32,000 bases of DNA from Fibrobacter succinogenes subsp. succinogenes S85 (GCF_000146505.1 NC_017448.1:2340001-2372000); one strand, 5' to 3'; numbered from the stretch's first letter, positions 1,545 to 24,687 are shown. Translations and numbers: made by a program. The notes: generated by a model not told the origin, from the sequence alone.

Positions 1545-1575
1545 CCCTGAAAAGCATTCCTCTCGCAAGAGAGAT
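1545..1575 (+). CRISPR. array A0: orphan single truncated repeat with no spacer
   Basis: CCCTGAAAAGCATTCCTCTCGCAAGAGAGAT runs directly into the T-tract and the sRNA promoter. Confidence 0.7.
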
Positions 1576-1625
1576 CTTTTTTCAAAAAACAGGTTGACAC
1601 TTTTGTTGTCTTTGTCGATATATGT

Positions 1626-1706
1626 TATGTCAGACGCTCGTTACGTTCGGCATAACATTTTACTCCTGAGGTTGGCGGTCCCGGTAAAAATCGGGGCCGT
1701 TTTTTA
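1626..1706 (+). ncRNA. trailer sRNA copy 0 (variant 1)
   Basis: TTGACA at 1594-1599, N17, GATATA at 1617-1622. Hairpin GTTATGTCAGACG..CGTTCGGCATAAC, single-stranded ATTTTACTCCTGAGG, then terminator stem plus T-run. Confidence 0.5.
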
Positions 1707-1724
1707 TTTGGCAATTGAGAGCGC

Positions 1725-1979
1725 GGAGCCTAAAAATTCCCATTTTCACTCAAAAAAGTGTAAATTTAAGGTGTCCGGTCTGCATGGCCGGGTCGCAACT
1801 TGACATTTGTTACAGACAACATTCGTGTTACCATGCCGAAATTGAGCTAAAAACGCCAATTTTGGGTGCTTTTTAGGGTTTTGTAAAGAAAAATTAAAAT
1901 TCTATTAAGTGCTTTTGCGTGCAGTTGTTACCAACGGCCGCCTGGAACCCTTTATTTATGCAGGTTCCAGAGGGGTACT
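1725..1979 (+). promoter_or_regulatory. CRISPR leader copy L1
   Basis: Conserved ~255-nt block. Candidate pre-crRNA promoter TTGTAA at 1881-1886, N16, TATTAA at 1903-1908. Hairpin CTGGAACC..GGTTCCAG sits just before repeat 1. Confidence 0.75.
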
Positions 1980-2379
1980 CCCTGAAAAGCATTACTCTCG
2001 CAAGAGAGATTAAGACTTAAACTCTTTTGTTGCTTTGAAGGGATTAAAATAGCCCTGAAAAGCATTACTCTCGCAAGAGAGATTAAGACTTTCATATTGT
2101 TACCTCCTAGAATTTTTCTATTCCCTCCCTGAAAAGCATTACTCTCGCAAGAGAGATTAAGACTTTGCAATCTTTGCCATGATCTTGGTCTTAGTGTTTT
2201 CCCTGAAAAGCATTACTCTCGCAAGAGAGATTAAGACAGAACACGCATTTCAGTATCGAGCCTTTCCTTGTCACCCTGAAAAGCATTACTCTCGCAAGAG
2301 AGATTAAGACCATCACTCATCTTTTTGAGTACCTCTGCAGGTACATCACCCTGAAAAGCATTACTCTCGCAAGAGAGAT

Positions 2380-2468
2380 GGCAACCTGGCGGTTGCCTGC
2401 TTGTCGGCTCGGTCATGCCCACGCAAGCGTGTTCGCGACGCTCGCCTCTGTCGCAGTAAGACTTGGAA
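2380..2468 (+). repeat. RSE, alpha type
   Basis: Splits the repeat that starts at 2349, after GAGAGAT. The 83-nt core ends GCAGTAAGAC, followed by linker TTGGAA and then CTCTCGCAAGAGAGATTAAGAC. Confidence 0.9.
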
Positions 2469-2558
2469 CTCTCGCAAGAGAGATTAAGACGGAGCTGGTT
2501 CCCATTCAGCAGATTCAATTGCTGATCCCCTGAAAAGCATTCCTCTCGCAAGAGAGAT

Positions 2559-2700
2559 GGCAACCTAGCGGCTGCCAGCTTGTCGGCTCGGTCATGCCCG
2601 TGCAAGCACGGTCGCGACACTCGCCTCTGTCGCAGTAAGACTTGGAAAGCGTAAAGCACTAACGTCATTGCAAGGAGTATAACGACGCGACGATCCACAA
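2559..2700 (+). repeat. RSE, alpha-prime type, with a 59-nt tail
   Basis: Core at 2559-2641 with hairpin 2 CGTG-CAAG-CACG. A unique tail at 2642-2700 precedes the terminal half-repeat. Confidence 0.85.
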
Positions 2701-2764
2701 CTCTCGCAAGAGAGTTTTTTTCAAAAATCTGGTTGACACTATTGTTGTCTTTGTCGATATATGT

Positions 2765-2845
2765 TATGTCAGACGCTCGTTACGTTCGGCATAACATTTT
2801 ACTCCTGAGGTTGGCGGTCTCGGTAAAATCGGGGCCGTTTTTTTT
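2765..2845 (+). ncRNA. trailer sRNA copy 1 (variant 1)
   Basis: TTGACA at 2733-2738, N17, GATATA at 2756-2761. Same hairpin, CCUC-containing segment and terminator as copy 0. Confidence 0.5.
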
Positions 2846-2924
2846 ATGTGGTTGACGTTCTTCTATATCAAAGAGATATAATGGTTGTCGGGCGCATGGG
2901 GCGTTCGGAAAAAAGAGGTAAAAT

Positions 2925-3020
2925 ATGAAAACTATTCAGCAAAGCATTTGGACTATTCCGTGGGGCGACATCCCGACTCCCCCGAAAATTTCATTTTTTG
3001 AGTCGGCGCTTTCATTCTAA
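2925..3020 (+). CDS. smORF1, 31 aa (MKTIQQSIWTIPWGDIPTPPKISFFESALSF)
   Basis: TTGACG at 2852-2857, N19, TATAAT at 2877-2882. SD AGAGGT lies 7 nt before the ATG. Conserved in 6 cassette copies, with synonymous-only changes in codons 5-23. Confidence 0.5.
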   Translation: MKTIQQSIWTIPWGDIPTPPKISFFESALSF

Positions 3021-3079
3021 AACGATAAAAACAGAAGGGTGCAATGTTGCACTGTCAAACCTTAACGGAGGATACCTCA

Positions 3080-3142
3080 ATGAGACCGATTGTCGCATCT
3101 GTTGATGAAACCGAAATCGAAATCCTTGCAAAACACTGCTAA
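3080..3142 (+). CDS. smORF2, 20 aa (MRPIVASVDETEIEILAKHC)
   Basis: SD GGAGGA precedes the ATG. Conserved in 6 copies; the differences are an in-frame 6-nt indel and a TAA/TGA stop swap. Confidence 0.4.
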   Translation: MRPIVASVDETEIEILAKHC

Positions 3143-3175
3143 TCAACGAATAAAATTTCAAACTAAAGCTTTAAA

Positions 3176-3204
3176 CCCCGGTGTCAAAAACCGGGCCTTT
3201 TTTG
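3176..3204 (+). terminator. terminator of the smORF module
   Basis: CCCGG..CCGGG stem followed by T6. Confidence 0.65.
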
Positions 3205-3221
3205 TTGTCAATTGGGGATGC

Positions 3222-3477
3222 GGAGCCTAAAATTCTCCATTTTCACTCAAAAAAGTGTAAATTTAAGGTGTCCGGTCTGCATGGCCGGGTCGCAATTTGA
3301 CATTTGTTACAGACAACATTCGTGTTACCATGCCGAAATTGAGCTAAAAACGCCAATTTCGGGTGCTTTTTAGGGTTTTGTAAAGAAAAATTAAAATTCT
3401 ATTAAGTGCTTTTGTGTGCAGTTGTTACCAACGGCCGCCTGGAGCCCTTTATTTATGCGGGTTCCAGAGGGGTACTC
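3222..3477 (+). promoter_or_regulatory. CRISPR leader copy L2
   Basis: Near-identical to L1. Confidence 0.75.
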
Positions 3478-3731
3478 CCCTGAAAAGCATTCCTCTCGCA
3501 AGAGAGATTAAGACTACTTTGCTTCGCAGCGTTGCTTATGGAAGAGCGTACCCCTGAAAAGCATTACTCTCGCAAGAGAGATTAAGACCTCTACGCTTAT
3601 TATAGATAATGAAGTTCTTAGGTTCTCCCTGAAAAGCATTACTCTCGCAAGAGAGATTAAGACCCTTACGCCAGTAAAGTGCAGTGTTAACGTTAAACAA
3701 CCCTGAAAAGCATTCCTCTCGCAAGAGAGAT

Positions 3732-3853
3732 GGCAACCTTGCGGTTGCCTGCTTGTCGGCTCGGAAATGGTCCCGCAAGCGGTCCCGCTTCGCTCGCCTC
3801 TGTCGCAGTAAGACCAAGATGTCATTCTGGAGCCGAAGGCGATAGAATCCATA
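3732..3853 (+). repeat. RSE, beta type, with a 39-nt hairpin tail
   Basis: Core at 3732-3814 (AAATGGTCCCGCAAGCGGTCCCGC variant). The tail CAAGATGTCATTCTGGAGCCGAAGGCGATAGAATCCATA is identical to the tail at 11208-11246. Confidence 0.9.
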
Positions 3854-3944
3854 CTCTCGCAAGAGAGATTAAGACTTTTCTAGCCCCTCCGCTATATGCT
3901 TTTCGAACCTTTCCCCTGAAAAGCATTCCTCTCGCAAGAGAGAT

Positions 3945-4036
3945 TGCAGCTACGCCGCCAAATGGTCGGTTCGGTCATGCCGGAATGCAAGCATTCCGTC
4001 GCGACGCTCACCTTATCCATTTGTAAGACTCTTTAA
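3945..4036 (+). repeat. RSE, gamma type
   Basis: 85-nt core GCAGCTACGCCGCC-AAATGG..GGAATG-CAAG-CATTCC..CCATTTG-TAAGAC plus linker TCTTTAA. Confidence 0.9.
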
Positions 4037-4128
4037 CTCTCGCAAGAGAGATTAAGACTTCTTGAGACGACGCACATACTCGCCTACGTTATGGACACCC
4101 TGAAAAGCATTCCTCTCGCAAGAGAGAT

Positions 4129-4328
4129 GACAATCTTCGATTGTCTGCTCCTAGGCTCGGCAATGGAAATGCAAGCATTTCCGCTGCTCTCGTCTTACGT
4201 CGCAGTGCGAGCCTGGCGGTTGCCTGCTTGTCGACTCGGAAATGGTCCCGCAAGCGTGTTCGCGACGCTCGCCTCTGTCGCAGTAAGACTAAAACAGGGT
4301 CCGTGAACCTGCCGAAGGGCCGCGAAGA
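4129..4328 (+). repeat. RSE, delta type (head-to-tail dimer), with a 39-nt tail
   Basis: The first monomer has GACAATC/GATTGTC and GGAAATG-CAAG-CATTTCC and is fused at ..CGTCGCAGTGCGAGCC.. to a second monomer that ends GCAGTAAGAC at 4289. Confidence 0.85.
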
Positions 4329-4392
4329 CTCTCGCAAGGGAATTTTTTTCAAAATTCTAGTTGACACTTTTGTTGTGCATAGCGATATAGTG

Positions 4393-4437
4393 TATGTTGA
4401 GTGGCTCCGGTGAAAACCGGGGCCGTTCGTGTTTTTG
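4393..4437 (+). ncRNA. degenerate, truncated trailer sRNA
   Basis: TTGACA at 4361-4366 and GATATA at 4384-4389 are kept. The 5' hairpin and the CCUC segment are deleted. The terminator stem is kept but the U-tract is weak. Confidence 0.3.
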
Positions 4438-4441
4438 GTGG

Positions 4442-4470
4442 TTGACATTTTCCCAAAACGAAAAGACATA
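4442..4470 (+). promoter_or_regulatory. candidate cas1-cas2 promoter, homologous to the smORF-module promoter
   Basis: GTGGTTGACATT (compare GTGGTTGACGTT in the cassettes). TTGACA at 4442-4447, N17, GACATA at 4465-4470. The following GGTTGTAGGGG parallels GGTTGTCGGGCG. Confidence 0.4.
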
Positions 4471-4526
4471 AAGGTTGTAGGGGTGCAAAGCCCCGGACAC
4501 AACTCAAAAAATGGGGAATCTATGCT

Positions 4527-5558
4527 ATGCATTTATACGTGACCGAACAGGGGACCCGCCTGGGGAAAAATGGCGGGCATTTGGTGGTCCAGCGCGACGG
4601 CTGTACCATAGACGATATTCTTTTGTCCGAGGTCGATTCGCTTTCGCTCTTTGGGGCGGTCCACCCGACGACAGACGCGATGCTTGCCTTGCTAGATAAG
4701 GGGGCGGACATTGCGTTCCTGAGCAGTGGCGGGCGGTATCGCGGGCGGCTTGTCTCGGCGGTGGGCAAGAATGTGCCTCTGCGGCTTTGCCAGTACGATG
4801 TCTTCCGCGACGATGATCGGGCTTTCGCGCTTGCAAAATCCTGTGTTGTCCGCAAGCTGGAAAACGGTTTGCGCGTCCTGGAGGCGTATTCCAAGAACCC
4901 GCACAATTCCTTCCGTTTTGAAAACCGCGACGAATACTTGCGGAACCTGAACGCTGTCCGGAGATTGCAAGGCTTTGATCGGGATGAACTACGGGGTTTT
5001 GAGGGCAATGGCGCGAGAATATATTTTGAAAACTTTGGTCGATGCCTGGCTTGCGGGCTGGATTTTCCCGGACGGAAATATCACCCGAGTACGGATCCCG
5101 TAAACGCGCTGCTTTCTTTTGGCTACACCCTTACGGCCCGTTCCCTGGAATCGCTGCTGGAGTCTTATGGAATGGACCCGATGTTAGGTTATCTGCACGA
5201 ACCCTCCTATGGCAGGAATTCGCTGGCGCAGGATATGCTTGAGGAGTTCCGGCATCCGCTTGTTGATAGGCTTGTGCTGTTCCTCTTCAATAGACGCGTT
5301 CTGGTGGCGGATGATTTTGAACAAAGAAATGATGAAAACTCGTCGGGACAGCTATTTCTGAAACCTGAAAAAATGCGTGTATTCTTGCACCATTACGAAG
5401 ATTTTGTGGCAAGGCCGAACGGCATCTATCAGGGGTTGGCGAATTTGCCTTGGCGCAGCGTGATGCGGCTCCGGGTCGAAGCGTTCCGTCGGTTGCTCTT
5501 GGAAGGAGTCGAGATGGCGGACTTGCAATGGAATCCCGAATACAGCGAGTCGGCATGA
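4527..5558 (+). CDS. cas1: CRISPR integrase Cas1
   Basis: 343 aa. Contains the typical Cas1 blocks DPVNALLSFGYTL and GYLHEPSYGRNSLAQDMLEEFRHPLVD. Confidence 0.95.
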   Translation: MHLYVTEQGTRLGKNGGHLVVQRDGCTIDDILLSEVDSLSLFGAVHPTTDAMLALLDKGADIAFLSSGGRYRGRLVSAVGKNVPLRLCQYDVFRDDDRAFALAKSCVVRKLENGLRVLEAYSKNPHNSFRFENRDEYLRNLNAVRRLQGFDRDELRGFEGNGARIYFENFGRCLACGLDFPGRKYHPSTDPVNALLSFGYTLTARSLESLLESYGMDPMLGYLHEPSYGRNSLAQDMLEEFRHPLVDRLVLFLFNRRVLVADDFEQRNDENSSGQLFLKPEKMRVFLHHYEDFVARPNGIYQGLANLPWRSVMRLRVEAFRRLLLEGVEMADLQWNPEYSESA

Positions 5559-5830
5559 AGTATCTGGTCGCGTTCGATATTTCAAATTCCCGCCGCCGCG
5601 GGAGGATGGTTAAGCTGTGCCTTGCGACTGGGTTTCGTGTGCAGAAGTCGGTATTCGAGTCGTTCTTGGACTCGGTGCAGGTGGCGAGTTTTGAAAACGA
5701 GGCCGAAAAGATTATTGATCCTGATACGGATTCGGTGAGGCTGTACCCGATTGACGCGCGGGCTGACGAAGGCGTGCGTATAGTCGGTTGCGGAAAGCGT
5801 ATTGAAAATCCCGCCTTCAAGGTGCTGTAG
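5555..5830 (+). CDS. cas2: Cas2
   Basis: ATGA overlap with the cas1 stop. MKYLVAFDISNSRRRGRM..VQKSVFE..DSVRLYPI is a Cas2 ferredoxin-fold signature. I chose the internal ATG over the longer ORF that starts at 5450. Confidence 0.9.
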   Translation: MKYLVAFDISNSRRRGRMVKLCLATGFRVQKSVFESFLDSVQVASFENEAEKIIDPDTDSVRLYPIDARADEGVRIVGCGKRIENPAFKVL

Positions 5831-6086
5831 CGGACCCAGAAATTTCCCATTTTCACTCAAAAAAGTGTAAATTTAAGGCGTCCGGTCTGCATGGCCGGGT
5901 CGCAACTTGACATTTGTTACAGACAACATTCGTGTTACCATGCCGAAATTGAGCTAAAAACGCCAATTTCGGGTGCTTTTTAGGGTTTTGTAAAGAAAAA
6001 TTAAAATTCTATTAAGTGCTTTTGCGTGCAGTTGTTACCAACGGCCGCCTGGAACCCTTTATTTATGCGGGTTCCAGAGGGGTACT
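5831..6086 (+). promoter_or_regulatory. CRISPR leader copy L3
   Basis: Starts immediately after the cas2 stop. Homologous to L1. Confidence 0.75.
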
Positions 6087-6188
6087 CCCTGAAAAGTATT
6101 CCTCTCGCAAGAGAGATTAAGACGTCGATCCTTCTTTTGGCCCCAACCTTCTTCTCCCCCTGAAAAGTATTCCTCTCGCAAGAGAGAT

Positions 6189-6280
6189 TGCAGCTACGCT
6201 GCCAAATGGTCGGTTCGGTCATGCCGGAATGCAAGCATTCCGTCGCGACGCTCACCTTATCCATTTGTAAGACTCTTTAA
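6189..6280 (+). repeat. RSE, gamma type
   Basis: Like 3945-4036 but with hairpin 1 GCAGC-TAC-GCTGC fully paired. Confidence 0.9.
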
Positions 6281-6370
6281 CTCTCGCAAGAGAGATTAAG
6301 ACTCAAATGGAGCTCGACAACCGGAGAATAGGCTTCATCCCCTGAAAAGCATTCCTCTCGCAAGAGAGAT

Positions 6371-6532
6371 TGCAGCCTGGCGGCTGCCTGCTTGTCGGCT
6401 CGGAAATGGTCCCGCAAGCGGTCCCGCTTCGCTCGCCTCTGTCGCAGTAAGACTAAAGAAAAGCGGAATATACCTCACAATGTCATCTCGGTCCTGTGCC
6501 GGGAACGCCATGTTTCTCTGAAGGTAAAAGAC
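6371..6532 (+). repeat. RSE, beta type, with a 79-nt tail
   Basis: Core at 6371-6453 (hairpin 1 GCAGCC/GGCTGC). The tail TAAAGAAAAGCGGAATATACC..GGTAAAAGAC is shared with 13425-13503. Confidence 0.9.
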
Positions 6533-6598
6533 CTCTCGCAAGAGAGATCTTTTTTCAAAAAACAGGTTGACACTTTTGTTGTCTTTGTCGATATATGT

Positions 6599-6679
6599 TA
6601 TGTCAGACGCTCGTTACGTTCGGCATAACATTTTACTCCTGAGGTTGGCGGTCCCGGTAAAAATCGGGGCCGTTTTTTA
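6599..6679 (+). ncRNA. trailer sRNA copy 3 (variant 1)
   Basis: TTGACA at 6567-6572, N17, GATATA at 6590-6595. Hairpin, CCUC segment and terminator are all present. Confidence 0.5.
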
Positions 6680-6762
6680 TTTTATGTGGTTGACGTTCTT
6701 CTATATCAAAGTGATATAATGGTTGTCGGGCGCATGGGGCGTTCGGAAAAAAGAGGTAAAAT

Positions 6763-14325: not shown

Positions 14326-14356
14326 TTGACGTTTGTCGCGCAAAAGCAGATGTATA
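14326..14356 (+). promoter_or_regulatory. promoter candidate sharing a block with the promoter at 180-210
   Basis: TTGACG, N19, TGTATA. Contains CGCAAAAGCAGATGTA, the same sequence found upstream of the GTPase gene. Confidence 0.35.
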
Positions 14357-14401
14357 GATGTGCTTGATGCAGACAAAACGTTAAACGAGGAGGATCGCTC
14401 A

Positions 14402-14830: not shown

Positions 14831-14846
14831 CGTTCGGGCGTGTAGC

Positions 14847-15191: not shown

Positions 15192-15372
15192 TTTCCCATG
15201 TCGGAGTGCCGGAAAAGGCTTAATTCTTTCAAAGAAAAGTGATTAATCAGCAGTTTGTCAAAATGTGGCTTAGCTCAGCTTGGCCATTTTCAAATACTTT
15301 TTCCACGCAAAGTCTTTTTTTCTGTAAACTTTTGCTAAAATAGGGTATATTACGAGAAAAGAAGGAAATGCT

Positions 15373-16671
15373 ATGAGTCGAAAAATATTTGTGAGCTTTT
15401 TGGGATTGACTGATTATAAATTAGCCGTCTATAAATCTTGGCGTGGTGAAGGCTGTGCTTCCGAAACGCGTTTTGTGCAAAAGGCGATTGTCGAATTGTA
15501 TCCCAAGACTGATCTTGACAAAATAGTCATTTTTGTAACCAAAGAATCGCGGGAAAAAAACGAGCAAGCTCTTTTGGAAGATCTGAAAGAATTGGGCGTA
15601 GAACCTGAAAAAATTGAGACGGAATTGATCTCTGTGGATGTTTCTGATTTGTCCTTGACTTGGAATTGGTTTGAATCGCTTCAAAGCAAATTTGAGAAAG
15701 GGGACACACTTGTTTTGGATGTTACTCACGGCTTCAGGATGGTGCCTGTCGTATTCTCGGCTGCAGTTGCATATCTGAAAAGGGTGAAAAATGTTCACCT
15801 TGAGTCGGTTCTGTATGGCGCGTTTGAAATGAAAGTGGATGCTAAACCTATCGTTAATTTGAAGGATTTTTACACCATAAGCGACTGGACCGAAGGTGTG
15901 GGACGTTTGGTTGATACGGCGGATGCCTCTTTCTTGAGAAAAACGGCAGAGAGCGAGTCTAATGGTAGCTTTGCTGGGCTTAATAATCAGGATCTGTTGA
16001 ATAGTATTGATGATTTGACTAAAGCATTTCGTAATGTTGAATTGCAGAATATTGAAAGTAAGGCGCGAAAGTCTCTGGATCTGATTTGCAAGTTCCAAAA
16101 GCAATCAAGCGGAAAACTTGAGGGACAAGTCCTTCAAATGATTATAGATCAGTTCCAACCGTTAGTAAGTGAACCGCCTCTTGATGGCTCCTATTCGTTG
16201 GATTATCTGAAGCTTCAGCTTCGCCTCATTAAGATGTTTGCAGAATACAATTTGTACATGCAGGCTTTTACCGCAATGAATGAGTGGCTGGGCTCATTGG
16301 GAGTATTTTTAATGAAGCGCGGGAGCGAGTTTAGGTTTACTTCGCGGGAAAAAGATAGCTCGGCTCGATCTCATGCTGCGGTTTTTTTGAATATGTTGCA
16401 GCACCCTGCTGATTTTGAGGCTGAAAACGAAACAATCGCAATGCTTAAAGCCTCGTTGGATGAGGCTTACAATACCCTCTTTGAAAAATATACGACTCAA
16501 GATGAAATTTCGGATTTGCTGAAACAGTCAAAAAAAATTCGCAACGGGTTTAATCATGGCTGGACTGGGGTTCACCGCAAGGGGGCTCCAAAAGATTTAA
16601 ATGAGAAGTTTGATAGAGCGATGGCAACATTGAATAGAATTGTAGAAAAGATAGGAGACGACAATGGCTAA
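15373..16671 (+). CDS. csx1: CARF-HEPN ancillary nuclease, Csx1/Csm6 superfamily (DxTHG-motif family)
   Basis: The N-terminus KIFVSFLGLTDY and the LDVTHGFR (DxTHG) motif are typical of CARF proteins. The C-terminal IRNGFNHG matches the R-x4-H HEPN motif. Confidence 0.8.
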   Translation: MSRKIFVSFLGLTDYKLAVYKSWRGEGCASETRFVQKAIVELYPKTDLDKIVIFVTKESREKNEQALLEDLKELGVEPEKIETELISVDVSDLSLTWNWFESLQSKFEKGDTLVLDVTHGFRMVPVVFSAAVAYLKRVKNVHLESVLYGAFEMKVDAKPIVNLKDFYTISDWTEGVGRLVDTADASFLRKTAESESNGSFAGLNNQDLLNSIDDLTKAFRNVELQNIESKARKSLDLICKFQKQSSGKLEGQVLQMIIDQFQPLVSEPPLDGSYSLDYLKLQLRLIKMFAEYNLYMQAFTAMNEWLGSLGVFLMKRGSEFRFTSREKDSSARSHAAVFLNMLQHPADFEAENETIAMLKASLDEAYNTLFEKYTTQDEISDLLKQSKKIRNGFNHGWTGVHRKGAPKDLNEKFDRAMATLNRIVEKIGDDNG

Positions 16672-18181
16672 GTTTTTGTACGGTGCCGCAGTGCAAGGCA
16701 TCCAAGGCTTTATTTTTCAGACGAATAAGCTGCGGGATATTGTCGGTGCCAGTGAACTGGTGGAAAGAATTTGTACCACCGATTTTGACGAGTTTGCAGA
16801 ATCAAATGGCGGAGCGAACGACCCCAAGTCTATACTGCGAGCAGCGGGTAATATCAAGTATTTGTTCGAAAGCGAAGATGCTTGTAAAAAGGCTGTGCTC
16901 AAGTTCCCCAAGAAGGTTGTAGAGAATGCCCCCGGTATAACGATTAGCCAGGCGGTTGTTCCTGTTGAAGATGATGCGGATATTGCAGCCGCTATCGATA
17001 AATTGGAAGCCTCGCTCAGAGTTCAGCGCAACAGGCAGATGCGTCCTATCAATTTGGGATTTACGGGCGTTCTCCGTTCACGTTCTACGGGTTTCCCGGC
17101 TGTTGAAGTTCGTAAGGACAAAAATGGGCAAGACGAGTTCCTTGACAAGGCGACTCAAAAAAAGCGTGATGCATCAGAGACGCAGGCTCTTTCTAAAAAA
17201 GCATTTGGTTTTGATGTTCTCACTAAGCAGGTTGCATTTGAAATAGACCAGATTACCGGCAAGAACGATTGGATTGCTGTAATTCATGCTGATGGAAATG
17301 GTCTCGGTCAGGTCGTGCAGAAAGTCGGCAAGAAAACGGACGAGTTCAAGGCGTTTTCCAAAGCGCTGGACGAAGCGACTGTCGGCGCTGCGGTCGATGC
17401 GTTCAATGCGCTTGTTGAACGTAAGTATTTCGATGTGAAGGACGAGTCAAAATTGATACCGATTCGCCCGGTGGTGCTCGGTGGCGACGACTTTACTGTG
17501 ATTTGCCGTGCTGATTTTGCTGTTGAGTACGTACAAAAGTTTTTGGAATCTTTCGAGAAACGTACTGGCGAAGGCGTCATAGCAGAACTGCTCAAAAAGA
17601 ATGCCGTATTCGAAAACGGAAACAAGCTAACGGCTTGCGCAGGCATTGCGTTTGTCAAGTCTTCTTACCCGTTCTACTATGCCTACGATCTTGCGGAATC
17701 TCTTTGTTCCATGGCGAAAAAAGATGCCAAGAAACCGGAAAACCCGCGCTATTTGGCTCCTTCTTGTTTGATGTTCCACAAGGTACAGAGTAGCTTTGTC
17801 GAAAGTTTTGACAAAATTGTTGATAAAGAGCTGACTGCGTCGGGTTGTTTGTATGTATTTGGCCCATATTATCTCGCTGAAACTCCGTATCGCTGGACTG
17901 TGGATAAGCTGATGGAAGTGTGCGACTTGCTGGATGGCGAAGATGGTAATGCGTTAAAATCAAATGTCCGTCAGTGGCTTACGCTACAATCTCAAGATGC
18001 TGGTATGGCAAAACAGAAGGCGGAGCGCATCGTGAGCATTTTGGAAAAGAGTGACTTGCGTTCTATTGCAGAAGAATTGGTGCAGAACGAAGTACTACGC
18101 AATGGCAAGAAGTATTCCCCTGCATACGATGTCTTGTCGTTACATTCGGTCCGCTTTCAGGAAACTAGATCCGCAAAATAA
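16664..18181 (+). CDS. cas10: minimal Cas10 (cyclase/polymerase palm domains only, no HD domain)
   Basis: 505 aa. It starts directly at the Cas10 palm-1 motif VQGIQGFIF..LRDIVGAS. Also has VIHADGNGLG, an intact GGDD (VVLGGDDFTV) and ACAGIAFVKSSYPFYYAYDLAESLCSMAKK. Overlaps csx1 by 8 nt. Confidence 0.85.
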   Translation: MAKFLYGAAVQGIQGFIFQTNKLRDIVGASELVERICTTDFDEFAESNGGANDPKSILRAAGNIKYLFESEDACKKAVLKFPKKVVENAPGITISQAVVPVEDDADIAAAIDKLEASLRVQRNRQMRPINLGFTGVLRSRSTGFPAVEVRKDKNGQDEFLDKATQKKRDASETQALSKKAFGFDVLTKQVAFEIDQITGKNDWIAVIHADGNGLGQVVQKVGKKTDEFKAFSKALDEATVGAAVDAFNALVERKYFDVKDESKLIPIRPVVLGGDDFTVICRADFAVEYVQKFLESFEKRTGEGVIAELLKKNAVFENGNKLTACAGIAFVKSSYPFYYAYDLAESLCSMAKKDAKKPENPRYLAPSCLMFHKVQSSFVESFDKIVDKELTASGCLYVFGPYYLAETPYRWTVDKLMEVCDLLDGEDGNALKSNVRQWLTLQSQDAGMAKQKAERIVSILEKSDLRSIAEELVQNEVLRNGKKYSPAYDVLSLHSVRFQETRSAK

Positions 18182-18192
18182 GGAGTATTGAC

Positions 18193-18744
18193 GTGAATAT
18201 CAATTATACGATACAGTTTTTTTCGGGCTGGCATTGTGGCTCCGGACTTTCGGCAGGTGCCGATGTGGATACTTTGGTTGTCAAGGATGACGATGGCTTG
18301 CCTTTTGTTCCTGGCAAGACTATTAAGGGCCTTTTGCGTGAGGCCGTTGAAGATTATGCCGCATTGACGCAAGAAGTTTCTGCTGAACGCATTGATGCGG
18401 TTTTCGGTTCGTTTGATTCAAAAGAAAAGTTTTCACGAGGGGTTGCCTTTTTTGGCAATGCCGCTTTAAGTGATGACGAGGCTAAAGCTATAAAGAGCGA
18501 CAAATTGCAGCCGTTCCTGTACAAGAGACTTTCGGCTACGGCGATTGGCGAAAATGGTGTCGCAAAGGACCATAGCCTTCGTCGTATTGAAGTTGTTGTC
18601 CCATGCAAATTGCAGGGTAAAATTCTTGATATCCCCGAGGACTTTGTTGAAGTCTTGAAAAAGAGTATGGGGCTTATCAAACGATTGGGCTCCTGGAGAA
18701 ATCGTGGCCTTGGTCGTTGCACTTTTAAATGCGAGGGTTGCTAA
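18193..18744 (+). CDS. RAMP protein (Cas7/Csm3-like), 183 aa
   Basis: GTG start with AAGGAG upstream. Contains WHCGSG..D..VVKDDDGLPFVPGKTIKGLLREA and the C-terminal G-rich loop GSWRNRGLGRC. Confidence 0.8.
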   Translation: MNINYTIQFFSGWHCGSGLSAGADVDTLVVKDDDGLPFVPGKTIKGLLREAVEDYAALTQEVSAERIDAVFGSFDSKEKFSRGVAFFGNAALSDDEAKAIKSDKLQPFLYKRLSATAIGENGVAKDHSLRRIEVVVPCKLQGKILDIPEDFVEVLKKSMGLIKRLGSWRNRGLGRCTFKCEGC

Positions 18745-18746
18745 TA

Positions 18747-20222
18747 ATGTCTACTTTGAAATTTAAATGCACCTTGCTGACCGATGTAATCCTCAACCAG
18801 CACGCTGCTACTGAGGGCAACCAGTCAACACTTGACTTTATTCCTGGAAACAACTTCCTTGGAATTGTGGCAGGGAATGTCTATGCGGAACATCGTGACC
18901 TTGCTTTGGATATTTTGCATAGCGGAAAAGTTCGTTTTGGCGATGCGCATCCGGCCTTGAATGGCGTGCGCTCATTACGTGTACCGTCTTGTTTCTTTTA
19001 TCCAAAGCTTGGCAGCTATAAGGAGGAATGCTATGTCCATCATGGTATCCCTAACCTTGCTAGCGATGACCTCAAGAAAAAGCAACTGAAACAGTGCCGT
19101 AACGGATTCTTGGCATTTAACGATTCTAAGAGCTCGTTTACGGATGTCGTTCCTGAAAAATTCTTTGCGATAAAATCTGCACACGACAGGGAAAAGTTCC
19201 GTTCCAAGGATAGCCAGATGTATGGCTACGAGTCTTTGCGGAAAGGCTTGGAACTGTTTTTTGAGGTGGAAGTAGATGATTCCTTGACCACAGATGTCAA
19301 AGAACTTGTTAGCTCATTGCTTGTTGGGAAAAAACGCGTGGGCCGTTCCAAGACTGCTCAGTATGGCCTTGTTGAAATTGAAACGGTTGACTATGCTGAA
19401 CCCGTTGTGGAAAAGCGCAACGATGATTACGTAATTGTATATGCGGATGCCCGTCTTATCTTTTTTGATGAATACGGAATGCCCACATTTACGCCAACGG
19501 CAGAACAGTTGGGTTGCCCTGGTGGAGAAATTGTGTGGGAAAAATCGCAGGTGCGCACATTCCAGTATTCTCCGTGGAATTTCAAGCGCCAGTCTAGAGA
19601 TATGGACCGCTGCGGTATCGAGAAGGGTTCTGTATTTGTGGTGAGCGAAGTGAAAGATTTTTCAGGCACATCATGTTATGTAGGAGAATTCAAAAACGAA
19701 GGTTTCGGAAAGGTAATTTACAATCCGAAATTCTTGAGTTACGATGGGCAGGGTGCTGCAAGTTATGCTTATGAAAAAGCCTCGGAACCAGATGCTCAAA
19801 ATTCGTCTTTGAGTGCTAAGCGACCTGCCTGCGACAGTGTTCTATTGAATTATCTAAAACACGAACAACGGAAGTTTAACGGTCTGTCTCGCATTTATGC
19901 TTGTGTGAACAAGTTTGTGTCAGATGAATCAATTTACTGGTGTGGCGAAGAATCGTTTGCAAGCCAATGGGGTACTATCCGCAGTATCGCGTCACGACTT
20001 AATAGCCGCACCGAGATTATGGGCGAGTTGTTCAATTCCGAAAAAGCTTACCTGGAGCATGGTGTTGCTGCTGAGAAGTGGAATGAAAATTCGCGCAAGG
20101 CACGTTTGAAGGATTTCCTTGAAAGTACGGCAAAGCAGGAAGGCTTCTCCGATGTGGAATTCAAGTCGCTTGTTGTCAATTTGGCGGCCGAGATGGCTAA
20201 AAAGATTCAGGGAGGTGTATAA
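18747..20222 (+). CDS. large RAMP protein, Csx10/Cas5-like
   Basis: ATG at 18747 follows GAGGG. Contains STLDFIPGNNFLGIVAG and the G-rich loop GRSKTAQYGLVEIE. The size and operon position fit a III-D csx10. Confidence 0.65.
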   Translation: MSTLKFKCTLLTDVILNQHAATEGNQSTLDFIPGNNFLGIVAGNVYAEHRDLALDILHSGKVRFGDAHPALNGVRSLRVPSCFFYPKLGSYKEECYVHHGIPNLASDDLKKKQLKQCRNGFLAFNDSKSSFTDVVPEKFFAIKSAHDREKFRSKDSQMYGYESLRKGLELFFEVEVDDSLTTDVKELVSSLLVGKKRVGRSKTAQYGLVEIETVDYAEPVVEKRNDDYVIVYADARLIFFDEYGMPTFTPTAEQLGCPGGEIVWEKSQVRTFQYSPWNFKRQSRDMDRCGIEKGSVFVVSEVKDFSGTSCYVGEFKNEGFGKVIYNPKFLSYDGQGAASYAYEKASEPDAQNSSLSAKRPACDSVLLNYLKHEQRKFNGLSRIYACVNKFVSDESIYWCGEESFASQWGTIRSIASRLNSRTEIMGELFNSEKAYLEHGVAAEKWNENSRKARLKDFLESTAKQEGFSDVEFKSLVVNLAAEMAKKIQGGV

Positions 20223-21625
20223 TGGAAAGTTTTGCTAGAAGTAATAACGTCCGTTACTTGGCTCGTGTTGTTTTGCAGGCTGAAACTCCGGTGGTTATCG
20301 GGAGTGGAGATAAAGACTCCCTAACGGATTCCCTTGTACAAAAAGATGTAAATGGACTTCCGTATATTCCGGCGTCGTCTGTGGCGGGATGCCTTCGCCA
20401 TGCGTTTGCATCGAAGTTGGATGTCAAAGAATTGGAACGAGTTTTCGGTTATCAAAAGTCTGACGATGGTCAGGGCTCTCGTGTTGTATTTACGGATGGT
20501 CGTTTGGTTGGCCCTAGTGGCGTTGTTGATGGCATTCAAAATATCAATTTCGATACGGATGCTTTCTTTAGCCGTTTTGCCAAGTTGCCCATTCGCGATC
20601 ATGTCCGTATTTCGCACCATGGTGCTGCCGAAAAGACAGGAAAATTTGACGAAGAGATTGTGTTCAAGGGTTCTCGTTTTTGCTTTGAGATTGAGCTAGT
20701 GGGTGAGTCTAATGATGCACAGTATTTTGATTCACTGCTGGAACAGATGATGCATTCGGAATTCCGTATAGGAGCAGGTTCTCGTTCGGGCTTTGGCAAG
20801 GTTAAAATTGTTGAACTTAAAAAGGCGGCTCTGGATCTGACGAACGGTGAAGATTTGGAGAAATATATCGGCAAGTCATCTGACCTTTCTGATCCGACTG
20901 ATTTCTGGAAAGATCTTCCGAAAGAACGCGTTCAGGATTTGAATACGGAGGGCTGGACTCGTTACGAGCTGGAACTTACTCCACGTGACTTTTTCTTGTT
21001 CGCAGCGGGTTCTGGCGATAACGATGCCGATATATGTGCCGTTCGTGCTTCTCAGATAGAGTGGAATGATGGTAAGCCCGTCTTTACGCCGAACTTGTTG
21101 CTGATTCCTGGAAGTTCTGTAAAAGGAGCCATTTCTCATCGTGTGGCTTACCGCTATAACAAGCGCGTGGGTGTGACACTTGAAAAACTGAAAGAAGCTG
21201 CTGAGGCTGCAAATAGGGATATCGCTGATTTGATCAAGGAAAACACCGGCTGCAAAAACAAGGCGGTGCAGACTTTGTTCGGTTCTCAGGACAAGGATAA
21301 TTCTTGCCGCGGTCGAGTTCTTCTTTCGGATGTGATTCAGAAAAAGTCTAGTACCAAGATTCTGAACCATGTTTCTGTAGACCGCTTTACGGGCGGTGCC
21401 GTTGCAGGAGCGCTTTTCTCTGAAAAAGTCTGGTCGAAGGAACCTTCTGAAACGTATACATTGAAGTTCCTGCTGGAACCTGGAGAGGTTGATGCAGATG
21501 TACTCGGTGCTTTTGAAGATGCTCTCAAGGATATTGCCAAGGGTATGCTTCCTTTGGGTGGCGGCGTCAATCGCGGTCATGGTGTTTTTGAAGGCAAAGT
21601 TTTAAAAAATGGCGAGGTATTGTAA
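20222..21625 (+). CDS. fusion of two Cas7 (Csm3-like) RAMP domains
   Basis: Two RAMP cores: GSGDKDSLTDSLVQKDVNGLPYIPASSVAGCLRHA and LLLIPGSSVKGAISHRVAY. G-rich loop LGGGVNRGHGVFEG. TAATG overlap with the upstream gene. Confidence 0.8.
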   Translation: MESFARSNNVRYLARVVLQAETPVVIGSGDKDSLTDSLVQKDVNGLPYIPASSVAGCLRHAFASKLDVKELERVFGYQKSDDGQGSRVVFTDGRLVGPSGVVDGIQNINFDTDAFFSRFAKLPIRDHVRISHHGAAEKTGKFDEEIVFKGSRFCFEIELVGESNDAQYFDSLLEQMMHSEFRIGAGSRSGFGKVKIVELKKAALDLTNGEDLEKYIGKSSDLSDPTDFWKDLPKERVQDLNTEGWTRYELELTPRDFFLFAAGSGDNDADICAVRASQIEWNDGKPVFTPNLLLIPGSSVKGAISHRVAYRYNKRVGVTLEKLKEAAEAANRDIADLIKENTGCKNKAVQTLFGSQDKDNSCRGRVLLSDVIQKKSSTKILNHVSVDRFTGGAVAGALFSEKVWSKEPSETYTLKFLLEPGEVDADVLGAFEDALKDIAKGMLPLGGGVNRGHGVFEGKVLKNGEVL

Positions 21626-22017
21626 TGAATAGGACGATAAATATTGAACAGTGCCAAGGCTATATCTGGAAAAGCGATGCGGACAAGCCGCAGGTCTTTA
21701 ATGGTTGCGCTTGCAATCTCGTGCTAGATGATTCTGCGAATCCCTTTGTTCTGGAGGCGATGCTTTATGACGCTCAGACGCAGGACTCCTATATGATCAA
21801 GTATGTGGATGGCCGTCATCTTATTCAGGAGTATAATTTATTCAATAAGTTCGATGATGTTACTGAAATATCTGTTTTGCCGAACCGTATGGAGGGTATT
21901 CCTGAGCTTAAGCTGAAACAGTTTTGGAAAAAAACTCCTGATAAGTTGTGCAATGGTTTTGAAACATTAACTCCTGCTGAGATTGTTTTTGCAGGCTTTA
22001 AAAAGGTGGGCGAATAA
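21625..22017 (+). CDS. small type III accessory protein (130 aa), possibly Csx19-like; not obviously a helical Cas11
   Basis: Translationally coupled at both ends (TAATG). I recognise no motif. The composition looks beta-rich rather than all-helical. Confidence 0.5.
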   Translation: MNRTINIEQCQGYIWKSDADKPQVFNGCACNLVLDDSANPFVLEAMLYDAQTQDSYMIKYVDGRHLIQEYNLFNKFDDVTEISVLPNRMEGIPELKLKQFWKKTPDKLCNGFETLTPAEIVFAGFKKVGE

Positions 22018-24284
22018 TGACGGTGAAAGCTCCTTTTAATTTTGTTCCTGTCTCTGACAAGGTTTATTTCCCGGAATGGGCTAGTTATATATCGCACGAT
22101 ATTCCTTTTGAAGACGGTGTAAGCGGCAGCATTAAGGTGAAAATTACGGCAAAGTCGCCCATCTTTGTTCGCAATGGCCATACTCAAGGCGATGCCGACG
22201 AAATATCAGATGCTTATAAGCAGTTCTCCAATGTCGATGGCAAGTACTACATTCCGGGAACCTCCATTAAGGGGGCTGTACGCAGCGTGCTTGAAATTAT
22301 GAGCTTCGGCAAGATGAGTACGCAGGAGACGCACAAGTTTGCACATCGCGAATGGGATTACAAAGAACTGTACCAGATAAAGGGCTCACTTTTGAAATTA
22401 AGGTGCGGCTGGCTCAGAAGAAAATCCGATGGAACATACTGTGTTCAAAGCTGTGGCAAACCATGGCGTATCAGTTTCAAGGATTTGGACAAGTATCTTG
22501 GAAAAAACCTGTTTGAACAAAACTTCTCGAATGCGAATAAGAAATCAACTGATTTGAATACTGCGCAAAAGGATGCTCAGAAACGGGGACATTTTGAAGA
22601 AGACCCAAAATCGGCAATGTTTAAATACCGTTTTTTTGATGACTTGAAAAAGACTCGAGATGGTATACATTTTGCAACGATTCCGCCTAAAGAAGGTAAG
22701 CCTGATAAGCGGAAAGTTCGCATAGATGAGAATGGCGAAATGGTGGGGAGTATAGTCTTGACAGGACAACCGGATGTTTCTGGTTTTATCGATCGCAAAC
22801 AGGGTGACGGTAAATTTTATGAGTTCGTTTTTCAGGACAAGCCCGAAAAGAACTACCCAATTTCTGAAGAGATGTTCAAGGATCTCGCTTACATTTACAA
22901 GGATAATCCTGAATGGGCTTACCATGCAAAGAATTTAGAGACCAAGGGCATTCCCGTCTTCTTTAGAGAAGAAGGTTTTGGTGATAGAGCGAAACTTGTG
23001 GATTGTGGTCTCGCCTATATGTATAAGCAACCATTTACAAAATCCCCTGCAGATTGGATTCCTTCTGCCCATAATTCTAATAATCACGATTTAGCCGAGA
23101 GTATTTTTGGCTATATCGCAAAAGAAAAGGATAAGCCCTCGTTAAAAGGTCGTGTTCAGTTCGGCCATGCCTTTAGCAAGGTTACAACGGGTTGTAAAAA
23201 GGATACTGAGTTTGTGCTTGCTAATCCGAGGGCGTCGTATTATCCGCTTTATGCGAGTGACGGAAGCTGGGATGATGCAAATTCAATTGCAGGTCGTAAA
23301 CGCTATGTTGTAAGAACCGGTGAATACGGTGTTGCGGATTCTGTCGGAACTGACAACATGAAGTCTATGGCGAATGTACTAAATGCCGGTGCCATATTCG
23401 AAGAAACCATTACATTCCATAATCTTAAACATATTGAATTGGGAGCTTTGCTTTCTGCTTTGACATTCCATAACAATGCGACGTGCCTACATTCCATTGG
23501 TCAAGGAAAACCTTTTGGCTGGGGTGCAACGTCGTTTGAAATTGAGGAGTTGGTTGTCGAAGGTGATCGCGAAAAAGATTGTCTCAAGTATATGGGCGAA
23601 TTTGAAAACGCCATGGATGATTTTCTGGGATCCGCTTGGGTTGATGATGCTGATATTAAGGAACTCTGTGCTATGGCGACGCCGATACCGACAGAGGCGA
23701 ATAGTACTTTTGAGTATATGAAACTCGATAATGGTGGAGTAAATGAGTTTAACAAACAACCTGCTCGTTGCGAAAATCTAGATCGCTTCACGAAAATTGC
23801 TTCACTGAAAAAGTGGAACAATTGGCAGATGGCCAAACCGAATTCCATCGTGAATATGCCTAGCGATGAAAAAGAAAAAATTCTTGCGGATATGGAAATG
23901 CGTATTCAGGAAAGCCTTGCCAAGGAGGCTGAATATGCTGCGGAGCGTGCCGCTGTTGAACAGGAACGTCGCGAAGAAGAGCAGAAGAAGGCTGCGAAAA
24001 AGGCTAATATGGATCTTTCGTTCTTGAACACGCTAACGACTTTCAAGGATGGGAAAAATAGGCTCGAGGCTAGCTTCAAGAAGCTTGACCTGTTGCCGAT
24101 TACGCCTGATGTCCTTGACCATCTTTCCGATGAAGCAAGACAATGCATTGAAAATTTTGTCGCACGTATGTTTGCTCGCCCAGAAAAGAAGTGGGGGAGT
24201 AAAAACAAGGATGTTGCAAAGGATGCAGCTATAGCTGAAGTCAAAAAATGGTTTGGTTCTGATTATAAGTGTCAGGGGCTTTAA
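22017..24284 (+). CDS. 755-aa RAMP protein (TIGR03986-like N-terminus) with a charged coiled-coil C-terminal extension
   Basis: The APFNFVPVSDKVYF start, YYIPGTSIKGAVRSVLE and the G-rich loop GQGKPFGWGATSFEI are RAMP signatures. The C-terminus contains EAEYAAERAAVEQERREEEQKKAAKKA. Confidence 0.8.
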   Translation: MTVKAPFNFVPVSDKVYFPEWASYISHDIPFEDGVSGSIKVKITAKSPIFVRNGHTQGDADEISDAYKQFSNVDGKYYIPGTSIKGAVRSVLEIMSFGKMSTQETHKFAHREWDYKELYQIKGSLLKLRCGWLRRKSDGTYCVQSCGKPWRISFKDLDKYLGKNLFEQNFSNANKKSTDLNTAQKDAQKRGHFEEDPKSAMFKYRFFDDLKKTRDGIHFATIPPKEGKPDKRKVRIDENGEMVGSIVLTGQPDVSGFIDRKQGDGKFYEFVFQDKPEKNYPISEEMFKDLAYIYKDNPEWAYHAKNLETKGIPVFFREEGFGDRAKLVDCGLAYMYKQPFTKSPADWIPSAHNSNNHDLAESIFGYIAKEKDKPSLKGRVQFGHAFSKVTTGCKKDTEFVLANPRASYYPLYASDGSWDDANSIAGRKRYVVRTGEYGVADSVGTDNMKSMANVLNAGAIFEETITFHNLKHIELGALLSALTFHNNATCLHSIGQGKPFGWGATSFEIEELVVEGDREKDCLKYMGEFENAMDDFLGSAWVDDADIKELCAMATPIPTEANSTFEYMKLDNGGVNEFNKQPARCENLDRFTKIASLKKWNNWQMAKPNSIVNMPSDEKEKILADMEMRIQESLAKEAEYAAERAAVEQERREEEQKKAAKKANMDLSFLNTLTTFKDGKNRLEASFKKLDLLPITPDVLDHLSDEARQCIENFVARMFARPEKKWGSKNKDVAKDAAIAEVKKWFGSDYKCQGL

Positions 24285-24288
24285 TCCC

Positions 24289-24687
24289 ATGCCCCGTCTT
24301 TTCAACGTAACAAACCATTCCGTTACCGATGACCAACGAGCAGATGCGATTGCATCGCTCGGCGTTGGTGATGTTGTCGATATGCCTCCCGATATTGCTC
24401 GTTGCTGGGGGACCGTGCCGCCGGAGCTTGACTCCGTTTGCGGCTATGTTCAGCCTGTAATTGACTGGCTTTCTTCTCAGGCAACAAAAGGCGATGTCGT
24501 GTGGGTGCAGGGCGAATGGGGCGCTGTGATAACGGTTGTGGCGTGGTGCGAGGCGCGTGATTTGCGTGCAGTGTATGCAACGACAAAGCGCGAGGCTACT
24601 GAAATTCATGGCGAAAATGGCGTGCAGATGACACATGTATTTAGGCATGTGCGCTTCCGCGATTTCCCGAAACTTGGAGCCCGTTGA
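24289..24687 (+). CDS. small accessory protein (132 aa), possibly Csx20-like
   Basis: The ATG at 24289 lies 5 nt after the upstream stop. Last gene of the operon. The family assignment comes from memory only. Confidence 0.45.
   Translation: MPRLFNVTNHSVTDDQRADAIASLGVGDVVDMPPDIARCWGTVPPELDSVCGYVQPVIDWLSSQATKGDVVWVQGEWGAVITVVAWCEARDLRAVYATTKREATEIHGENGVQMTHVFRHVRFRDFPKLGAR

Follow-up and report, generated by a model that had tools for sequence, protein, structure and literature searches.

In the III-Dv CRISPR-Cas system of Synechocystis sp. PCC 6803, CRISPR2, whose effector structure is solved (Protein Data Bank [PDB] 8S9T and 8S9U), the effector operon runs csx1/csm6, cas10, cas7-cas5-cas11, cas7-2x, csx19, and cas7-insertion (PMC11026444). 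The Cas11 domain and the Cas10 C terminus serve there as small subunits, and Csx19 is a β-sheet-rich core subunit that lies between Cas5 and Cas10 and is required for assembly (PMC11026444). In another Synechocystis system, III-Bv (CRISPR3), RNase E and RNase J carry out the maturation of CRISPR RNAs (crRNAs), and Cas6 takes no part (PMC12464536). A Csx19-bearing subclass of III-D has been described, with Fibrobacter, Tannerella, and Campylobacter named among its hosts, along with others (Shah et al. 2018, PMC6546367). Here, we analyzed a III-D locus of the rumen bacterium Fibrobacter succinogenes subsp. succinogenes S85, within a stretch of 32,000 nucleotides (nt), referred to as the window (NC_017448.1:2340001-2372000; window base 1 lies at about CP001792.1:1,893,276, and the span is about 1.893 to 1.925 Mb). 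The locus presents a natural experiment, in which a lineage appears to have lost cas6, kept the 8-nt crRNA tag, and evolved a stable repeat hairpin.

For comparison, we used the 10 kb upstream of the window (L001), the 10 kb downstream of it (L005), an orthologous 21-kb locus in a metagenome-assembled genome of a second Fibrobacter species (L007; Csx10 92% identical to that of S85), and 80 fetched loci carrying the same cassette, mostly from Bacteroidales. Proteins were named by profile searches with NCBIfam, Pfam, and PADLOC. An earlier note, made from the sequence alone, had described the region from 15373 to 24687 as a compact, III-D-like operon of eight translationally coupled genes. All eight open reading frames (ORFs) are present on the + strand and tightly packed, with junctions ranging from an 8-nt overlap to an 11-nt gap, and each of the encoded proteins is matched by a profile specific to III-D, in several cases with a score that exceeds the curated cut-off (Table 1). 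The profiles bear out the subtype and the guesses of csx10, a fused cas7, a TIGR03986 RAMP, and csx19/csx20, as well as the count of at least five RAMP domains (in Cas7, Csx10/Cas5, Cas7-insertion, and, twice, Cas7-2x). The ORFs of 130 and 132 amino acids (aa), which had been left as unknown, are Csx19 and, by its match to the family model, Csx20; Csx20 has been shown elsewhere to be a ring nuclease specific for cyclic tetraadenylate (cA4), which it degrades in vitro (PMC12409355).

The catalytic motifs are intact in these proteins. Csx1 has an N-terminal CARF domain with a DxTHG motif and a HEPN motif, RNGFNH, at residues 390 to 395; Cas10d matches Pfam Cas10-Cmr2_palm2 and carries a GGDD cyclase motif at residues 273 to 276; and Cas7-2x has GSGD acidic loops at residues 27 and 263. 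No N-terminal HD domain was found in Cas10d, the sole HD-like match being an internal HAD match at residue 208. The Cas10 had been regarded as unusually short, but 505 aa is the median length across 76 related loci, the protein matches the Cas10d profile over its full length, and the Synechocystis Cas10 has 575 aa; an HD-less Cas10 of ∼500 aa is a trait of the subtype and no anomaly. By sequence, the only relatives in the PDB are chains of 8S9T, namely Cas10 (8s9t_C; phmmer E 2.8e-38, aligned from query residue 8 onward) and Cas7-Cas5-Cas11 (E 6.9e-08). The stand-alone Cas7, encoded by a separate gene 2 nt upstream of csx10, also matches positions 11 to 189 of the fused, 709-position Cas5_IIId profile PDLC02091, and one homologue, P0004, which has 689 aa and a RAMP domain, appears fused.

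The locus thus has csx10, an HD-less Cas10 with palm domains, csx19 within the operon, Cas7-2x, and a TIGR03986 Cas7, all features of III-D with the III-Dv architecture; of the features of that architecture, it lacks a single-polypeptide Cas7-Cas5-Cas11 and an associated cas6. Because of the profile matches, the gene order shared with 8S9T, and the large catalogued family to which it belongs, the operon can be assigned cleanly to III-D, with the described III-Dv gene order and a Cas10 of normal length. Judged from its sequence, it is a complete III-D interference and signaling module of III-Dv architecture, in which csx1 and csx20 flank genes that correspond, in order, to the five proteins of the Synechocystis complex. 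The family is large and conserved, with 2284 Csx10 homologues and 45 to 62% Csx10 identity between S85 and the Csx19-bearing III-D cassettes of its relatives. The effector operon is therefore ordinary and of an already catalogued kind, and by itself it adds little, being one more example from a large III-D family with a solved architecture.

The earlier note had seen no cas11, and indeed no separate gene for a helical small subunit occurs in the operon; the subunit itself is likely present, fused to the C terminus of Csx10. In an AlphaFold2 (AF2) model of Csx10 (predicted local distance difference test [pLDDT] score, 84), a RAMP body leads into helices at residues 365 to 488. The top Foldseek match of this model in the PDB is the Synechocystis Cas7-Cas5-Cas11 protein (8s9t_A; E 5.5e-22, ∼17% identity), over 566 columns, an alignment long enough to cover both the Cas5 and the Cas11 parts. 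Modeled alone, the C-terminal 147 residues form a five-helix bundle (pLDDT 88.5) with the shape of Cas11, in which some five helices are packed compactly in ∼120 to 150 aa, and phmmer gives a weak stretch of alignment between Csx10 residues 318 to 463 and residues 574 to 723 of the 8S9T Cas7-Cas5-Cas11 chain (i-E 120). Csx19, labeled “core gene (cas11)” by PADLOC and Shah, was set aside as a Cas11 analogue; that label is a 2018 prediction superseded by the III-Dv structure.

What sets the S85 locus apart is the missing cas6. Searches of sizeable ORFs with the Cas6 profiles of PADLOC, NCBIfam, and Pfam gave no match in the 32-kb window, in the 10 kb on each side, or in the 21 kb of L007, and tblastn and hidden Markov model (HMM) searches of six-frame translations with 64 neighboring Cas6 proteins yielded a best E of 2.3 and no Cas6. 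The earlier report of an operon without cas6 consequently stands for the 52 kb around the S85 locus, including the flanks, where a gene just outside the window was looked for. Among the related loci, by comparison, cas6 is present in 68 of 80: a 227-aa Cas6 (PDLC01381, E 9e-46) occurs in 63 and a second Cas6 family (PDLC01477) in 5 more. Fifty of the genes for the 227-aa family lie no more than ∼150 nt upstream of cas10, in the same orientation, and it is this usual cas6 position that csx1 occupies in Fibrobacter. Most of the other loci without cas6 are contigs that end near cas10. Where the upstream sequence is adequate, ∼96% of the loci retain cas6, and it is missing only from S85, L007, and four Bacteroidales loci. 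In L207, an outgroup at 60% identity, csx1 precedes cas10 as it does in Fibrobacter, and cas6 lies beside cas1-cas2. The genome paper describes only one other CRISPR locus in S85, with a 48-nt repeat and three cas genes (PMC3079729 Text S8), the pattern of type II, a system without Cas6. Together, these comparisons indicate that cas6 was lost from the Fibrobacter lineage.

The repeat has changed as well. At 37 nt, the S85 repeat (CCCTGAAAAGCATTcCTCTCGCAAGAGAGATTAAGAC, that is, CCCTGAAAAGCATTcCTCTC-GCAA-GAGAG-ATTAAGAC) folds into a 5-bp, GCAA-capped hairpin (CTCTC-GCAA-GAGAG) that ends 8 nt from the 3′ end (−7.2 kcal/mol), as had been described from the sequence, and 65 copies of the hairpin lie upstream of the operon, against 0 expected. 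Repeats of the Cas6-bearing relatives are 35 to 37 nt long (...GCATCTTCCATTAnAAnAAGGATTAAGAC), share with it a homologous 5′ half and an identical 8-nt tag, ATTAAGAC, and are essentially unstructured (−1.1 kcal/mol). Among the compared loci, the GNRA hairpin is restricted to Cas6-less Fibrobacter; in the same place, another array of Fibrobacter type, which comes from a metagenome (L167), carries a stem of different sequence (CCACGA...TGTGG). The hairpin had been taken for a classical Cas6 substrate. Because the Cas6-encoding relatives have unstructured repeats with the same tag, it is not an inherited Cas6 substrate; it is a lineage-specific innovation that accompanied Cas6 loss, and its occurrence only in Fibrobacter argues for a changed processing route. 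Thirteen repeats that follow an 84-nt element or a pseudo-spacer (both described below) lack the 5′ 15 nt, yet retain hairpin and tag. These truncated repeats still precede ordinary spacers, which suggests that hairpin and tag are the functional unit and are sufficient.

Two candidate partners in processing were considered and rejected. Each leader carries GCTTTTTAGGG, a near-complement of the 5′ end of the repeat, CCCTGAAAAGC (blastn-short; e.g., 1867-1878), but at 11 to 12 nt the match is too short for a tracrRNA-like anti-repeat acting as a processing duplex. A gene for an NYN plus OST-HTH RNase (from ∼31859 onward; L005 14924-16078) might have encoded a dedicated nuclease; it is unlinked to the L007 locus and probably unrelated.

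We consider it probable that the locus encodes a III-Dv-type module in which the small-subunit role is supplied, cas6 has been lost, and crRNAs mature without Cas6. The middle of the repeat has been remodeled into a stable GNRA hairpin, with retention of the tag, and the pre-crRNA would be cut at the 3′ base of the hairpin by a non-Cas6 activity, most likely a housekeeping endoribonuclease, by analogy with RNase E and RNase J in Synechocystis III-Bv. One copy of each subunit would assemble on a crRNA with the 8-nt 5′ tag AUUAAGAC, with the five-helix domain of Csx10 and the helical Cas10 C terminus in the small-subunit role, as in III-Dv and III-D2. The Cas7 domains would then cut complementary phage RNA. 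GGDD, Csx1, and Csx20 together point to cyclic oligoadenylate signaling: binding of the target would stimulate the palm domains of Cas10 to produce a cyclic oligoadenylate, most likely cA4, which would activate the HEPN RNase of Csx1 and be degraded by Csx20 as a reset.

Several observations weigh against this interpretation. In its 5′ half, the repeat remains conserved in comparison with the Cas6-bearing relatives, a pattern to be expected if the repeat were still read by a Cas6-like protein or by Cas1-Cas2. The absence of cas6 from the genome beyond the scanned regions depends on an annotation summary from 2011. Foldseek searches of the PDB with the isolated Csx10 domain gave no significant match, the best Cas11-containing entry being 6xn3_E (E 9.8), and a 20-sequence profile of the same domain retrieved only spurious lectin matches from the PDB sequences; because neither search returned Cas11, we infer that assignment from architecture and position. 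No protospacer was found for any spacer examined, either by blastn of the 40 spacers against GenBank phages or with three spacer cores against IMG/VR. The crRNA ends and expression are predicted only, and the current activity of the system is putative.

Processing by the effector itself is unlikely. Under that explanation a RAMP subunit, either the stand-alone Cas7 or Csx10/Cas5, would cleave the base of the hairpin, in the manner of III-E Cas7.1 or I-C Cas5d. The hairpin-plus-tag geometry does resemble that of Cas5d substrates; III-E tags are longer than 8 nt. The S85 Cas7 is the positional equivalent of Cas7.1, and III-E, which arose from III-D-like ancestors, swapped Cas6 for Cas7.1 processing (PMC13294483). 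The same subunits are, however, shared by the Cas6-bearing Bacteroidales relatives, no catalytic gain specific to Fibrobacter is evident, and nuclease residues were not identified in the candidate subunits.

It is also quite doubtful that an orphan cas6, or one belonging to another system elsewhere in the genome, processes the array in trans for an otherwise standard III-D operon. Type III systems are known to use the Cas6 of a co-resident system, the repeat is still recognizably homologous in its 5′ half (CnCnGAnAnGCAT..TCC) to the repeats of Cas6-bearing relatives, and in L207 cas6 is located away from the effector genes. Set against this are the lack of a Cas6 in the 52 kb around the locus and in the 21 kb of L007, the type II pattern, without Cas6, of the only other S85 CRISPR locus (PMC3079729), the lineage-specific hairpin, and the 5′-truncated repeats that still precede normal spacers.

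The arrays expose a previously unannotated structured RNA family. An 84-nt element, present in 23 copies within the S85 arrays, starts right after the hairpin plus A, and its tag-like end (...GCAGUAAGAC or ...GCAGTAAGAC) replaces the tag. It is followed either by a 6- to 7-nt linker and a 5′-truncated repeat or, at the end of a sub-array, by a conserved structured pseudo-spacer, the hairpin, and a T-run. The family has five helices, and RNAalifold and a structure drawn by hand agree on helices P1 to P4. Compensatory changes occur at 18 of 24 pairs, and the covariation score is 0.43, compared with 0.16 in shuffles (0 of 500 reach 0.43) and 0.05 to 0.10 in slid controls. A covariance model finds 40 copies; in the alignment fitted to that model, covariation is seen at 21 of 25 pairs and 91% of cells are paired, and the unpaired cores GGCUCGG-NN-AUG and CGC-NN-C-N-CUCGCCUU are conserved. 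These patterns are strong evidence for a structured RNA. Rfam 15 gave no match to the element at gathering thresholds in the window, and an E-value search of positions 1400 to 15400 returned nothing relevant.

The element is absent from the 78 non-Fibrobacter loci (nhmmer and cmsearch) and present in L007, in the metagenome loci L091, L130, L092, L134, L155, L167, and L205, and in others; among the matches listed from a loose-pattern metagenome scan, cmsearch identified real copies in 15 of 120 loci. On metagenomic contigs, diverged copies also occur outside CRISPR arrays, in ordinary intergenic regions, for example a short way upstream of malic-enzyme-like and CoaBC-like ORFs, next to tRNA genes, or as tandem copies. 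In two places (L155 6369-6420 and L201 8690-8720), C-rich, G-poor TTTCGTC repeats that resemble a Rho-utilization tract follow non-CRISPR copies, which hints at a tendency of the element to be located where transcripts end. No copy of the element or of the S85 repeat was found in IMG/VR, which argues against a phage-borne RNA anti-CRISPR. On sequence grounds, the element is best described as a structured repeat, or a functional RNA, that is dispersed in Fibrobacter-like genomes and recurs at one precise array position; it may be a mobile repeat of the REP/MITE type or a processing or termination signal.

The pseudo-spacers at the sub-array ends follow the 84-nt element and share the pattern ATGTCAT-hairpin-(AT)CGCCA/ATCCA. 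One of them, CAAGATGTCATTCTGGAGCCGAAGGCGATAGAATCCATA, is identical at 38 of 39 positions between S85 and L007, whereas the true spacers all differ. Side by side in the S85 arrays are two spacers (10803-10840 and 10878-10915) that differ by one base (CCTCAGC... versus CTTCAGC...), a difference that implies a recent repeat-spacer duplication; L007 likewise has two pairs of duplicated spacers.

That the 84-nt RNA acts in crRNA biogenesis or in the handling of the array transcript, whether as a docking or processing signal for a host RNase, a self-cleaving RNA, or a stabilizing or terminating 3′ trailer, is rather improbable, although several features speak for it. Its position after hairpin plus A and its tag-mimicking end are constant in three types of Fibrobacter array, including L167; nearly all sub-arrays end in element, structured pseudo-spacer, hairpin, and U-run; covariation is strong and the unpaired cores are conserved; and the element co-occurs with Cas6 loss. 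On the other side, the diverged copies in non-CRISPR intergenic regions may mark a REP/MITE-like repeat that invaded the arrays, most spacers are not adjacent to an element, and no Rfam ribozyme family was matched.

The arrays themselves are arranged in units. Each of the eight sub-arrays has a near-identical leader and ends in the repeat hairpin followed by a T-run, a terminator-like arrangement; earlier surveys counted 5 to 29 separate CRISPRs in the S85 genome. Between the sub-arrays lie modules of ∼770 nt, six full and two partial copies that are 92.5 to 96% identical. In order, a module consists of the repeat hairpin with its T-run, a promoter-like site, a small RNA of ∼75 nt with its own terminator, a second promoter-like site, a 31-aa ORF (MKTIQQSIWTIPWGDIPTPPKISFFESALSF), a 20-aa ORF (MRPIVASVDETEIEILAKHC), a terminator, and the leader of the next sub-array. 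This layout and the promoters were read by eye, and the terminator-like sites are separately supported. Both peptides (31 aa, MKTIQQSIWTIPWGDIPTPP...; 20 aa, as above) are conserved in all six full modules, and the small RNA (ATTTTACTCCT / GTACCTCC) is partly complementary to the ribosome-binding region of the 31-aa ORF. Recognizable versions of the small RNA and of both peptides occur in L007. The small RNA and micro-ORFs may constitute a toxin-antitoxin or CreTA-like cassette. The cas1-cas2 pair lies between two sub-arrays, with a variant of the module before it, a leader directly after it, and no cas6 beside it. We found no description in the literature of such a modular architecture of leader, array, structured trailer, small RNA, and micro-ORFs, here repeated eightfold.

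These features could be combined in a broader scenario, which we put forward tentatively and regard as unlikely. Cas6 would have been replaced by a new maturation scheme in which the GNRA-hairpin repeat and the 84-nt RNA serve as processing, termination, or stabilization signals for a housekeeping RNase, or in which the 84-nt RNA would be catalytic, with the array multiplied into eight self-contained transcription units, each bearing a small RNA and two micro-ORFs that possibly form an addiction cassette (CreTA-like or type I toxin-antitoxin-like) guarding the locus.

Decay of the locus into a non-working system, marked by cas6 loss and by invasion of the arrays by repeat elements, is very improbable. 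In its favor are the absence of cas6, arrays that are broken up and interrupted, the truncation or degeneration of some repeats (e.g., 7917-7960, 12358-12390, and 14081-14190), and the failure to find protospacers, but all eight ORFs are intact with their catalytic motifs (GGDD, R-x4-H, and GSGD) preserved, the architecture of elements, pseudo-spacers, and small ORFs is kept in a second species with 92% Csx10 identity and wholly different spacers, and there are 40 unique spacers, a leader for each sub-array, and an intact cas1-cas2.

Table 1. Coordinates of the features of the S85 locus, with copies in L007 where named
Feature	Position	Strand	Evidence or remark
CRISPR region, eight sub-arrays of 37-nt hairpin repeat	1545..14200	+	40 unique spacers of 34-40 nt; transcribed toward cas operon
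cas1	4527-5558	+	TIGR00287, 214 bits
cas2	5555-5830	+	TIGR01573, 53 bits
Full inter-array module	2715-3477	+	
Full inter-array modules, others	6547-7309, 8055-8830, 9769-10542, 11261-12033, 12385-13162		
Partial inter-array modules	1574-1980, 4335-6087		
84-nt element, one of 23 copies	2379..2462	+	Embedded in arrays
84-nt element, further copies include	2558, 3731, 3944, 4128+4207, 6188, 6370, 7413, 7591, 7769, 7953, 9304, 9486, 9590, 10946, 11124, 12210, 13341, 13592, 13919+13998		
84-nt element, copies in L007	194-277, 3887-3974, 6102-6186		
Pseudo-spacers, S85	3815-3853 + 11208-11246; 6454-6532 + 13425-13503		
Pseudo-spacers, L007	6187-6225 + 3975-4049		
csx1, CARF-HEPN ancillary RNase, 432 aa	15373..16671	+	TIGR02221, 209.5 bits (cut-off 76); PADLOC CARF_HEPN PDLC01832, E 3.6e-199
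cas10d, large subunit, 505 aa	16664..18181	+	PADLOC Cas10d PDLC02058, E 1.6e-162, positions 2-440 of 441
cas7, stand-alone RAMP, 183 aa	18193..18744	+	PADLOC Cas7_IIId PDLC02110, E 1.5e-68
csx10 (III-D Cas5), 491 aa (497 if upstream ATG used)	18747..20222	+	PADLOC Cas5_IIId PDLC02088, E 5.6e-155
Putative Cas11 domain, Csx10 residues ∼365-488	19839..20210	+	AF2 five-helix bundle; architecture and position
cas7-2x, two fused Cas7 domains, 467 aa	20222..21625	+	PADLOC Cas7_IIId PDLC02107, E 4.2e-142; Pfam RAMPs twice
csx19, core III-D subunit, 130 aa	21625..22017	+	TIGR04423, 143.3 bits (cut-off 40); PADLOC Csx19, E 8.8e-47
cas7-insertion, RAMP with C-terminal extension, 755 aa	22017..24284	+	TIGR03986, 248.9 bits (cut-off 161); PADLOC PDLC02108, E 1.9e-149
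csx20, ring nuclease family, 132 aa	24289..24687	+	NF040559, 138.7 bits (cut-off 70); PADLOC Csx20, E 9.4e-54

Two small ORFs lie between the last sub-array and csx1. One, of 114 aa (14847-15191, − strand), gives a match (E 3e-38) to C3a178, a type III-associated family labeled “putative invertase”; the other, of 142 aa (14402-14830, + strand), has no family match, and a copy of the module small RNA precedes it. On the upstream side (window 250-1266 and L001 1343-9915), two dynamin/LeoA-like GTPases adjoin unannotated proteins of 245 and 664 aa, and the same region encodes a radical SAM protein, a PP2C phosphatase, a VWA protein, and a protein kinase. The GTPase region may be another defense island adjoining the CRISPR locus; searches with defense profiles gave no match for the unannotated ORFs of L001, of L007, or of window positions 14402 to 14830.

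Two aspects of the locus merit follow-up: the putative loss of Cas6 with remodeling of the repeat, and an array architecture that contains an unannotated structured RNA with strong covariation. S85 is a cultivable, sequenced organism, and Cas6-independent maturation of type III crRNAs is directly testable in it.

Compared with known systems, the S85 operon has the same gene order as Synechocystis III-Dv, and the 575-aa Cas10 of that system is likewise HD-less with GGDD. In Synechocystis, cas7 is fused to cas5-cas11, and cas6-2a and the adaptation genes lie downstream; in S85, cas7 is separate, there is no cas6, cas1-cas2 lie within the upstream array region, and csx20 is added at the 3′ end of the operon. 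Identity between the two systems is low (∼17% for Csx10 in the Foldseek alignment). The Csx19-bearing III-D cassettes of Bacteroidales, Tannerella, Campylobacter, and Fibrobacter, represented by the 80 fetched loci, have the same eight-gene repertoire, a 37-nt repeat, and the tag ATTAAGAC; 68 of the 80 carry cas6, usually directly upstream of cas10, whereas the Fibrobacter loci have none, and the relatives outside Fibrobacter carry no 84-nt element. Type III-E Cas7-11 and III-D2 (PMC13294483) are placed with the S85 system in one evolutionary series, whose effectors have fused Cas7 units and a Cas7 that bears an insertion. III-E resembles S85 in having no Cas6 but is a self-processing, single-protein effector with a protease partner and no Cas10, whereas III-D2 has a Cas6 of its own and combines Cas7x3 and Cas7-5 with CorA and with a GGDE Cas10 whose product is SAM-AMP, where S85 has GGDD, Csx1, and Csx20. 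Synechocystis III-Bv (PMC12464536) is a III-B variant from a different phylum, whereas the S85 system is III-D; it, too, is a type III system without a Cas6 of its own, and it offers the best precedent for the maturation route proposed here.

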